A stretch of 64,000 nucleotides of DNA, from the NCBI RefSeq assembly GCF_003334315.1, contig NZ_QOWR01000016.1; one strand, 5' to 3'. The DNA comes from Escherichia coli. Its GTDB lineage: Bacteria > Pseudomonadota > Gammaproteobacteria > Enterobacterales > Enterobacteriaceae. The position numbers were made by a program, and so were the translations under genes. Positions 28,753 to 32,441 of this stretch are shown here, piece after piece. Under the pieces are notes generated by a model. That model did no database searches. It had not been told where the DNA came from and saw only the letters and a program-made list of their open reading frames with translations. Each line of letters begins with the position of its first letter. The first letter of the stretch is position 1.

Positions 28753-30012
<1,260 letters not shown>

Positions 30013-30028
30013 TCGTCTGAAAGCTGGC

Positions 30029-30046
30029 AGCCCCGTACGCGGGGCT
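30029..30046. terminator. GC hairpin between convergent murA and sfsB (possible shared terminator)
   Basis: agccccg tacg cggggct 7-bp stem; nearest T-run on plus strand is about 13 nt further, so not canonical. Confidence 0.3.
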
Positions 30047-30059
30047 ACCGCCAGACCAC

Positions 30060-30338
30060 TCATTTTTTCGGTTTAGTGTAGCTACGCATCAACTGCGTTC
30101 TGTCGATAAACTCATGGGTCTGCGGATCATGGTAGCGTGATGGCCAGATAACCCAGGGGTCAGTTCCCAGGGCCTTCGCAATAATCATCTCTCCTTTCGG
30201 CCATGGGCGCGATAATGCATTCGCCAGCGTTGAGGAACTCAAACCATTTCTGCGAGATTCCGCCGCCATTGACGTTCCCTTCTTGCGCAAACCCGCAATG
30301 ATGTCAGCGGGATGCCAGTCAATGAAATTACTTTCCAT
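30060..30338 (-). CDS. sfsB: Ner-like DNA-binding regulator SfsB (Nlp)
   Basis: 92-aa ORF; HTH-like segment GLSSSTLANALSRPWPKGE. Confidence 0.9.
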   Translation of the reverse strand: MESNFIDWHPADIIAGLRKKGTSMAAESRRNGLSSSTLANALSRPWPKGEMIIAKALGTDPWVIWPSRYHDPQTHEFIDRTQLMRSYTKPKK

Positions 30339-30566
30339 CTTTCCTCACTCCTTAAGTTAGTCGCTTTCATTCAGAACACTTCTTCTGTCGAGCATCACTA
30401 TACTCCTGATGGCCGATTGCTCTAAAAAGTTCCTGTAAAGAGTGTGAATATTCAGAATATATAAAGATGTATACACTGGTTTTTCAGTGCATTATTACGC
30501 TGAATAAGTATTCTTATGGAGTTTACTGGAATCATCCCGCGCACTGCGCGGGATGAGGGGAGGGGA

Positions 30567-31538
30567 TTAACGATCGCGTTGAACAGCGATGTGCGCGAGG
30601 CCGATGAGTGCTTCTCGCCAAGGGGTGTCCGGGAGCACCTGTAACGCTGCGATGGCTTTGTCTGCTTCTTCCTCGGCGCGCTGACGCGTCCATTCAAGAG
30701 ATCCACAAGCGTTCATTGCTTCCAGAACCGGTTCCAGAAGATGGCGACCGTTACCCTGTTCGATGGCGGTACGGATCATCTGTGCCTGTTCTGGTGTGCC
30801 ATGATGCATCGCATGCAGCAGCGGCAGCGTCGGTTTACCTTCGTTCAGATCGTCGCCGACGTTTTTACCTAACTGTTCGCCATCGGCATTGTAATCGAGT
30901 AAATCGTCGATCAACTGGAAAGCAGTGCCGAGATAGCGCCCATAATCCTGCAGGCCTTTCTCCTCCTCCGGCGTACAGCCAGCCAGAATTCCGGAACACT
31001 GCGCGGCAGCCTCAAACAGACGCGCGGTTTTGCTATAGATAACGCGCATGTAGTTTTCTTCAGTGATGTCCGGATCGTTAACATTCATCAGTTGCAGAAC
31101 TTCACCTTCTGCGATGACGTTTACGGCTTCTGACATGACTTCCAGCACTTTGAGTGAACCGAGGCTGGTCATCATCTGGAAAGCGCGGGTATAAATAAAA
31201 TCGCCTACCAGCACGCTGGCGGCATTGCCAAATGCGGCGTTGGCGGTAGCTTTACCCCTGCGCATATCTGATTCATCCACAACGTCGTCGTGCAGCAGAG
31301 TCGCCGTGTGGATAAACTCGATCAGGGCAGCAATGGTGACATGCGCATTTCCCTCATAGCCAACAGCTCGTGCAGCCAGTACAGCAATCATCGGACGAAT
31401 ACGTTTACCGCCGCCGCTGACGATGTAATAGCCTAACTGATTGATCAGTTGGACGTCGGAATTAAGCTGCTCAAGGATTGCCGCATTAACACCCGCCATA
31501 TCTTGCGCGGTTAACTCATTGATTTTTTCTAAATTCAT
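30567..31538 (-). CDS. ispB: octaprenyl diphosphate synthase
   Basis: 323-aa ORF; two Asp-rich prenyltransferase motifs (LLHDDVVD and IDDLLD). Confidence 0.95.
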   Translation of the reverse strand: MNLEKINELTAQDMAGVNAAILEQLNSDVQLINQLGYYIVSGGGKRIRPMIAVLAARAVGYEGNAHVTIAALIEFIHTATLLHDDVVDESDMRRGKATANAAFGNAASVLVGDFIYTRAFQMMTSLGSLKVLEVMSEAVNVIAEGEVLQLMNVNDPDITEENYMRVIYSKTARLFEAAAQCSGILAGCTPEEEKGLQDYGRYLGTAFQLIDDLLDYNADGEQLGKNVGDDLNEGKPTLPLLHAMHHGTPEQAQMIRTAIEQGNGRHLLEPVLEAMNACGSLEWTRQRAEEEADKAIAALQVLPDTPWREALIGLAHIAVQRDR

Positions 31539-31695
31539 CGCAAAAGCCGGGCTTTTCGCCCCGATTACCTTACTGTGAACAAAGGCAACTTAGGGTTTAT
31601 GGTTAGGAATATAGGGTGATTGTACTGAAAAAATGGCACAGATAAACGTTACCGTACAAGTTGTGTTTTTTTTCTTCGTGTATTGACTGTAGCAC

Positions 31696-31724
31696 TTGTC
31701 AAAGGCGTGCGTTTTGCGTAATAT
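31696..31724 (+). promoter_or_regulatory. candidate sigma70 promoter of rplU-rpmA (-35 TTGTCA, 17-bp spacer, -10 TAATAT, GC-rich discriminator)
   Basis: TTGTCA 31696-31701, TAATAT 31719-31724 followed by tcgcgccc; T-rich tract upstream. Confidence 0.45.
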
Positions 31725-32411: not shown

Positions 32412-32441
32412 AAAGCCCCGCAACACGTTGCGGGGCTTTTT
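32412..32441 (+). terminator. intrinsic terminator after rpmA
   Basis: agccccgcaac / gttgcggggct 11-bp stem followed by ttttt. Confidence 0.7.

Follow-up and report, generated by a model that had tools for sequence, protein, structure and literature searches.

A perfect palindrome just past ispB in Escherichia coli is most likely a conserved stem-loop of the ispB 3′ untranslated region

A perfect palindrome found a few bases past the stop codon of ispB in Escherichia coli is most likely a stem-loop that closes the ispB message beyond its coding part, acting in the sense transcript and not as double-stranded DNA. The hairpin is real, conserved and functional-looking, and is an unremarkable member of a class already known. 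As for its role, we favour that of a protective 3′ stem-loop of the Rho-dependent type, which our comparisons make, on balance, probable and for which we infer the position of the 3′ end, the dependence on Rho and the trimming. The palindrome was studied in a 64,000-nt stretch of the E. coli chromosome (hereafter the window, meaning the whole stretch of DNA that was analysed), in which the spacer carrying it is 100% identical to that of E. coli strain 720632. The genes are arranged in the order murA (+, 28753-30012), sfsB (-, 30060-30338) and ispB (-; Table 1), followed by rplU-rpmA (+), and the gene order around ispB is identical in K-12. As ispB and sfsB are co-oriented, the palindrome, inside the 228-nt spacer that separates them, is 3′ of the former and 5′ of the latter. 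The product of IspB is the octaprenyl side chain of ubiquinone and menaquinone, and ispB is hence essential.

Table 1. Features of the ispB-sfsB spacer and its surroundings, in window coordinates.
Feature	Position	Strand	Basis
ispB coding sequence, 323 aa, octaprenyl-diphosphate synthase	30567..31538	-	ORF list; 100% identity to annotated ispB of strain 720632
ispB stop codon TAA	30569-30567	-	ORF list
Spacer from stop codon to hairpin, 10 nt, C-rich, G-free, UCCCCUCCCC	30557..30566	-	sequence
Perfect palindrome with 12-bp arms; 11-bp RNA stem, loop AGU, -21.1 kcal/mol	30532..30556	-	repeat search, folding
Candidate Rho-loading region, 80 nt past the hairpin, A/T-rich, 15 C vs 9 G	30452..30531	-	C/G skew; putative role
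Tandem YYCCA(R)TAA, period ~10: TTCCAGTAA (30523-30531), CTCCATAA (30514-30521)	30514..30531	-	intergenic alignment
sfsB sigma-70 promoter TTTAGA-18-TATAGT	30397..30426	-	promoter scan; conserved across genera

The two arms of the palindrome (30532-30543, TCATCCCGCGCA, and 30545-30556, TGCGCGGGATGA) are 12 nt each and 100% complementary, with 1 nt between them. A preliminary description of this DNA had reported a perfect 10-bp palindrome at 30533-30553; the palindrome is real, but the arms were drawn too short, and the string then given, ATCCCGCGCAcTGCGCGGGAT, matches 30534-30554, one base away. The same description placed it 14 nt past the ispB stop, a distance that is actually 12 nt for the version with 10-bp arms and 10 nt for that with 12-bp arms; its estimate of about 195 nt to sfsB was right, 195 nt separating the end of the palindrome from the sfsB ATG (30338). 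As RNA of the ispB strand, the palindrome forms an 11-bp, G+C-rich stem with a 3-nt loop, at -21.1 kcal/mol as compared to -9.2 +/- 2.4 kcal/mol for shuffled sequences (z = -5.0), and this hairpin dominates the fold in both 61-nt and 141-nt contexts.

Chance does not account for the palindrome. Its pattern, with up to three mismatches allowed, occurs once in the 64-kb window, as against 0.00 occurrences expected from 100 shuffles. Seven places in the 64 kb (15 nested entries) carry a perfect inverted repeat whose arms measure at least 10 bp and whose spacer is at most 8 nt, for an expectation of 0.5 in Markov simulations; arms of 12 bp are reached at two places, the ispB palindrome and the terminator that follows rpmA (32412-32439), where none is expected. 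At four of the other six perfect-repeat places, runs of A and T border the repeat, like those of classical bidirectional terminators; the ispB palindrome is not.

The element is not a dispersed repeat. A 51-nt piece around the hairpin is single-copy in 5425 of 5426 complete E. coli genomes, and a 262-nt piece that covers the spacer is single-copy in all 5426; moreover, a covariance model built from 22 orthologs recovers, in the 64 kb, the ispB site alone (on both strands, the sequence being palindromic) and one site per orthologous locus. REP and BIME elements resemble the ispB hairpin in being extragenic palindromes able to block exonucleases at mRNA 3′ ends, but they are multi-copy and share a consensus, whereas the ispB hairpin is found once per E. 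coli genome and once in the window; identity with these elements is ruled out by copy number. In the K-12 RefSeq record, the palindrome is not annotated as a repeat or as any other non-CDS feature, and an Rfam scan of positions 29900-31700 (E <= 10) returned no match covering 30532-30556.

A hairpin at this position is widespread. A scan with IspB, taking one genome per species, listed 80 Enterobacterales loci (Salmonella and Klebsiella are not among them), and in most of these, in a count that like our other cross-species counts ignores kinship (the species are not phylogenetically independent), a stable hairpin lies 2-60 nt past the ispB stop, typically at -12 to -26 kcal/mol; in a minority of the listed loci the hairpin found by the perfect-stem scan is weaker. 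A stem of 10-12 bp, with an energy of -16 to -20 kcal/mol, is retained in Escherichia (arms UCAUCCCGCGC/GCGCGGGAUGA in E. coli), Citrobacter (CAUCCCGUGC/GCACGGGAUG) and Enterobacter (CUCCCCGUGA/UCACGGGGAG). In Cedecea and Buttiauxella (UUUAGCGCGCC/GGCGCGCUAAA), Pantoea (GGGGCC/GGCCCC) and Serratia (CAGGCCCGC/GCGGGCCUG) the stems are unrelated in sequence.

What is conserved is the pairing. In a sequence-only MAFFT alignment of 22 Enterobacteriaceae, 89% of the cells are paired and 7 of the 11 pairs have changed on both sides; the covariation score was reached by none of 500 shuffles, and sliding the 3′ partner lowers the pairing to 30-55%. A 39-sequence MAFFT alignment gave the same picture of pairing and covariation; RNAalifold run on this raw alignment returned no structure, because indels in the loop put the rows out of register, and the structure was therefore specified and the pairs counted instead. 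The alignment made with the covariance model, in which the two strands are mixed, did not enter these counts. The strand on which the pairing matters is indicated by wobble pairs, the counts of which are small and ignore kinship, though all go in the same direction: among 82 unique orthologs, internal G·T combinations, which wobble in ispB sense RNA, number 17 against 6 for A·C, which wobbles only in antisense RNA; the sense strand gives the more stable fold in 44 orthologs against 32 (mean gain of 0.7 kcal/mol; Wilcoxon p = 0.025); and each of the three E. coli stem polymorphisms sampled, an A>G at the base of the stem (the K-12 type), an A>G opposite U and a C>U opposite G, results in U·G or G·U on the ispB strand. 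Changes on both sides with the pairing kept, together with the G·U bias on the ispB strand, are expected of an RNA structure and not of a protein operator, and point to selection on RNA pairing in the ispB transcript and not on a DNA half-site.

The preliminary description had considered a protein-binding palindrome, and had proposed conservation of the half-sites as a check; it is the half-sites that vary, complementarity alone being conserved. That the palindrome is DNA bound by a dimeric protein, for example as an operator or upstream site for sfsB, is thus highly improbable. Such a site would explain the perfect 12-bp dyad symmetry and the location in the ispB-sfsB spacer at the distance from the sfsB ATG given above, and the operators of dimeric transcription factors are likewise perfectly symmetrical, intergenic and upstream of a gene. 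In these operators, however, the sequence of the half-sites and the position relative to the promoter are fixed, whereas the site at ispB keeps only its complementarity and follows the upstream gene. Besides the double-sided changes and the entirely different stems of other genera, the polymorphisms that create G·U on one strand break the symmetry of the DNA, and neither the window nor the orthologous loci hold a second copy.

The sfsB side of the spacer also bears on this reading. The sfsB promoter (Table 1), whose hexamers are identical to those listed for the ispB>sfsB spacer in RpoD genomic SELEX (PMC3946193), is, across genera, better conserved than any other block of the spacer and lies about 106 nt 3′ of the hairpin; a protein bound at the palindrome would thus sit about 106 nt upstream of the -35 element. 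In 22 species sfsB is 580-1670 nt away from ispB, and a stable hairpin still adjoins the ispB stop; where the two genes are far apart, the best hairpin upstream of sfsB reaches just -2 to -9 kcal/mol. In E. coli isolate 12 (NZ_CM194533.1, locus 788-1485), an IS1 element lies about 20 nt 3′ of the intact hairpin and splits ispB from the sfsB promoter. That the palindrome could belong to the sfsB regulatory region, as had been suggested earlier, does not agree with the distance to the promoter or with the hairpin staying with ispB in the 22 species and in the IS1-bearing strain. Because the hairpin is kept beside ispB when sfsB is more than 500 nt off, the element is, as judged from its position across genomes, one of the ispB 3′ end and not of the sfsB control region. 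The promoter region of sfsB itself (30397-30460, -) contains a block strongly conserved across genera, TCTGAATAT...TTACAnGAACTTTTTAGA...TATAGT, which reaches well upstream of the -35 element; that it serves as an operator, perhaps one through which the Ner-like SfsB controls its own gene, is speculation.

The palindrome also folds as RNA of the + strand, at -25 kcal/mol in context, and could in principle serve there as a barrier to, or the 3′ end of, antisense transcripts reading through from murA across sfsB toward ispB. A bicyclomycin-sensitive Rho region, antisense to ispB/sfsB, was in fact mapped on that strand inside the spacer, at NC_000913.3 position 3334816 (-), which corresponds to about 30432 (+) in the window (Adams et al., 2021; PMC7815308), and this region probably stops the read-through from murA that runs antisense across sfsB. 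It is situated, however, about 100 nt before an antisense transcript would meet the hairpin. The wobble pattern, 17 to 6 in favour of the ispB sense strand, is at odds with an antisense role as well, as are all the sampled stem polymorphisms of E. coli and the position of the hairpin, which follows the ispB stop codon in all species, whatever comes downstream. Of the readings considered here, a role on the opposite strand has the slimmest chance of being correct.

If the hairpin acts in the ispB transcript, it could end transcription or protect the message. The E. coli tail that follows the stem reads UUCCAGUA; its two stem-proximal bases are U, and on the ispB strand the sequence after the palindrome (UUCCAGUAAA) has 3 U in its first 8 bases, as expected from its earlier description as non-U-rich. 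In most Enterobacteriaceae genera, 1-4 of the first 8 tail bases are U (UUCCAGUA, CUCCAGUA, AGUUCCAG); the Citrobacter tail is U-rich (UUCUUAUA, 5 U in 8). In Hafnia (UUCUUUUA), Edwardsiella (UUUGUUUUUU), Photorhabdus and several Pantoea/Erwinia (see also UUUUUCUG), the stem is followed by a U-run, and the hairpins of these species are, by their sequence features, canonical intrinsic terminators. A scan with a terminator consensus, which requires at least 5 T in 8, did not call the ispB hairpin. An A-tract upstream of the stem is absent, there being no A in the 8 nt concerned in E. coli and a mean of 1.7 across 87 loci; over the same 87 loci the spacers between stop codon and hairpin total 420 C and 160 G. 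Past the stem C again exceeds G, in 84 of the 87 orthologous loci (means of 21.6 C and 10.9 G), and in the strain analysed the 80 nt past the stem have a C/G skew of 0.25, which ranks at the 94th percentile among the 80-nt windows of the whole stretch; the absolute C content is modest (15 in 80 nt), which makes this a modest rut candidate. Orthologs with U-poor tails have the more stable stems, at -16.4 kcal/mol as compared to -13.8 kcal/mol for those with U-rich tails (p = 0.015, kinship ignored).

A leaky, non-canonical intrinsic terminator is a possibility that we take seriously, if tentatively: the strong hairpin and the two proximal U residues (UUCC) would release some of the polymerases, possibly with the help of NusA or NusG, and the rest would read on toward sfsB. 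Canonical intrinsic terminators are akin to the ispB hairpin in being G+C-rich hairpins just past a stop codon, and those predicted in Hafnia, Edwardsiella, Photorhabdus and several Pantoea/Erwinia occupy the same position and carry a true U-tract; the 5 U in 8 of the Citrobacter tails, the two U bases nearest the stem in E. coli, and a stem as strong as those of the canonical terminators of the window, for example that after rpmA, agree with such activity. Canonical terminators, however, combine a U-tract with an A-tract, and the ispB hairpin has neither. The 3 U in the first 8 tail bases of E. coli, with 1-3 in most Enterobacteriaceae genera, form a state that has been kept across many genera, and the absence of an upstream A-tract and of a call in the consensus scan weighs in the same direction, as does the absence of a Term-seq 3′ end called there by Adams et al. 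(2021). In addition, the stop codon and the stem are only 10 nt apart, and a ribosome terminating there would, as inferred from the size of its footprint, overlie some of the 5′ arm.

The U-tract versions in outgroup genera could also suggest that the E. coli hairpin has no function and is what remains of an ancestral intrinsic terminator, its U-tract having decayed and its stem now drifting neutrally. We regard this as very unlikely. A neutral stem would lose its pairing; instead, 10-12 bp and -16 to -20 kcal/mol are kept, through compensatory and wobble-only changes. The hairpin is also kept in 5425 of 5426 E. coli genomes, even though a patch 40 nt further on is hypervariable.

This patch, 30 nt in length (at about 30465-30497, -), is hypervariable within E. 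coli, the spacer being only 90-95% identical to that of the window in 4254 of 5426 genomes; it lies about 40 nt past the hairpin, and its flanks and both proteins are nearly invariant. Within it, the terminator scan flagged a downstream hairpin with a T-run (30492-30471), which as a candidate for the true ispB terminator is weak (8 pairs, of which 3 are G-C; -8.7 kcal/mol) and has no cross-genus conservation. A small open reading frame that starts at an ATG in the 3′ arm of the palindrome was likewise rejected, as its length of 27 codons here, 16 in K-12 and 3 in Citrobacter is not conserved.

The protective reading is favoured because the signature of the ispB hairpin matches that of a class of stem-loops described by Dar and Sorek (2018; PMC6061677), which mark where Rho-dependent transcripts of E. 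coli end at steady state and show low U after the stem, no A-tract and more C than G downstream. The explanation given for these stem-loops was that Rho terminates diffusely downstream, that PNPase and RNase II trim the RNA back to the stem and that the stem then protects the mRNA. Like the members of this class, the ispB hairpin is a stable stem-loop of terminator energy directly past a gene, with low U, no A-tract and C>G downstream, and, like 76% of that set, it is not a REP element. The class was defined experimentally, by a Term-seq 3′ end, bicyclomycin-sensitive read-through and trimming by PNPase/RNase II, whereas the ispB hairpin is compared with it by sequence and predicted fold. By analogy, the hairpin would most likely set where the mature ispB mRNA ends and shield that end. 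RNA polymerase would mostly pass the hairpin, since the tail UUCCAGUA has too few U residues to release it efficiently by the intrinsic route, and transcription would end further on, probably through the loading of Rho on the untranslated, weakly structured RNA with C>G between the hairpin and sfsB. PNPase and RNase II, working in the 3′-to-5′ direction, would then trim the tail to the base of the stem, which would be impassable for both. The outcome would be that the message of the essential, weakly expressed ispB is stabilised and that ispB transcription is kept out of the separately promoted sfsB. The preliminary description had preferred an RNA 3′ stability hairpin to an intrinsic terminator. 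The covariation, the wobble bias of the sense strand, the U-poor tail, the lack of an A-tract and the excess of C over G favour that statement, although the orthologs with U-tracts leave some room for a weak terminator role. A protective stem-loop and a leaky intrinsic terminator are not mutually exclusive.

The Term-seq tables and the tables with and without bicyclomycin of Adams et al. (2021; PMC7815308) hold no 3′ end and no Rho region on the ispB strand near K-12 positions 33346xx-33348xx, the hairpin itself spanning 3334692-3334716 of NC_000913.3 (+ strand). This absence is weak evidence, because the tables record strong signals only and because their 800-nt windows would take in the transcription of sfsB from its own promoter, which would mask read-through. 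The TERMITe supplements contain no match for ispB or sfsB, and full-text searches of the literature for ispB with terminator/Rho or with UTR/Hfq returned nothing relevant.

If the protective reading holds, the conserved stem-loop probably sets the stability of the ispB mRNA and separates ispB from sfsB, a separately promoted regulator gene. For the scanning of genomes, it follows that a perfect, G+C-rich palindrome a few bases past a stop codon is, even without a U-run, most simply taken as an mRNA 3′-end structure, and that compensatory changes and a strand bias of G·U in orthologs tell such a structure from a protein operator. The switching of one 3′-end position between hairpins with and without a U-tract across Enterobacterales would represent a turnover in the mode of termination, which is mildly interesting but unsurprising.

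The tandem YYCCA(R)TAA motif that adjoins the stem on its 3′ side (Table 1) is conserved in many Enterobacteriaceae genera although the sequence of the stem drifts. As a dispersed motif, YYCCARTAA was dismissed, its 3 matches in the window compared to 2.7 expected representing no enrichment. The tandem is loosely like the direct-repeat boxes of response regulators, such as GTAAA-N5-GTAAA. The hairpin and the repeats could together form a composite 3′-UTR/intergenic element, one that might be bound as RNA by a protein or an sRNA, or as DNA, through its direct repeats, by a response regulator; we consider this unlikely. Such an element, if it exists, might set how much of the transcription or decay of ispB reaches the sfsB promoter.

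Other hairpins were seen elsewhere in the window. A second perfect hairpin, AUUCGCCAGAC ugu GUCUGGCGAAU (4591-4615, -), is located 15 nt past the stop codon of a 472-aa ORF (4631-6049, -); its tail is U-poor too (CAAAUUACUG) and its architecture is that of the ispB hairpin. A perfect, spacerless palindrome of 22 bp, TGATGAAGATTAATCTTCATCA (17000-17021), overlaps the 3′ end of a 90-aa ORF (17009-17281, -). Finally, a hairpin between the convergent murA and sfsB genes, GCAGCCCCGTACGCGGGGCTACC (30024-30051), is the equivalent of a murA Term-seq 3′ end at K-12 positions 3335194-6 (Adams et al., 2021; PMC7815308) and is likely to be a bidirectional terminator shared by the two genes.
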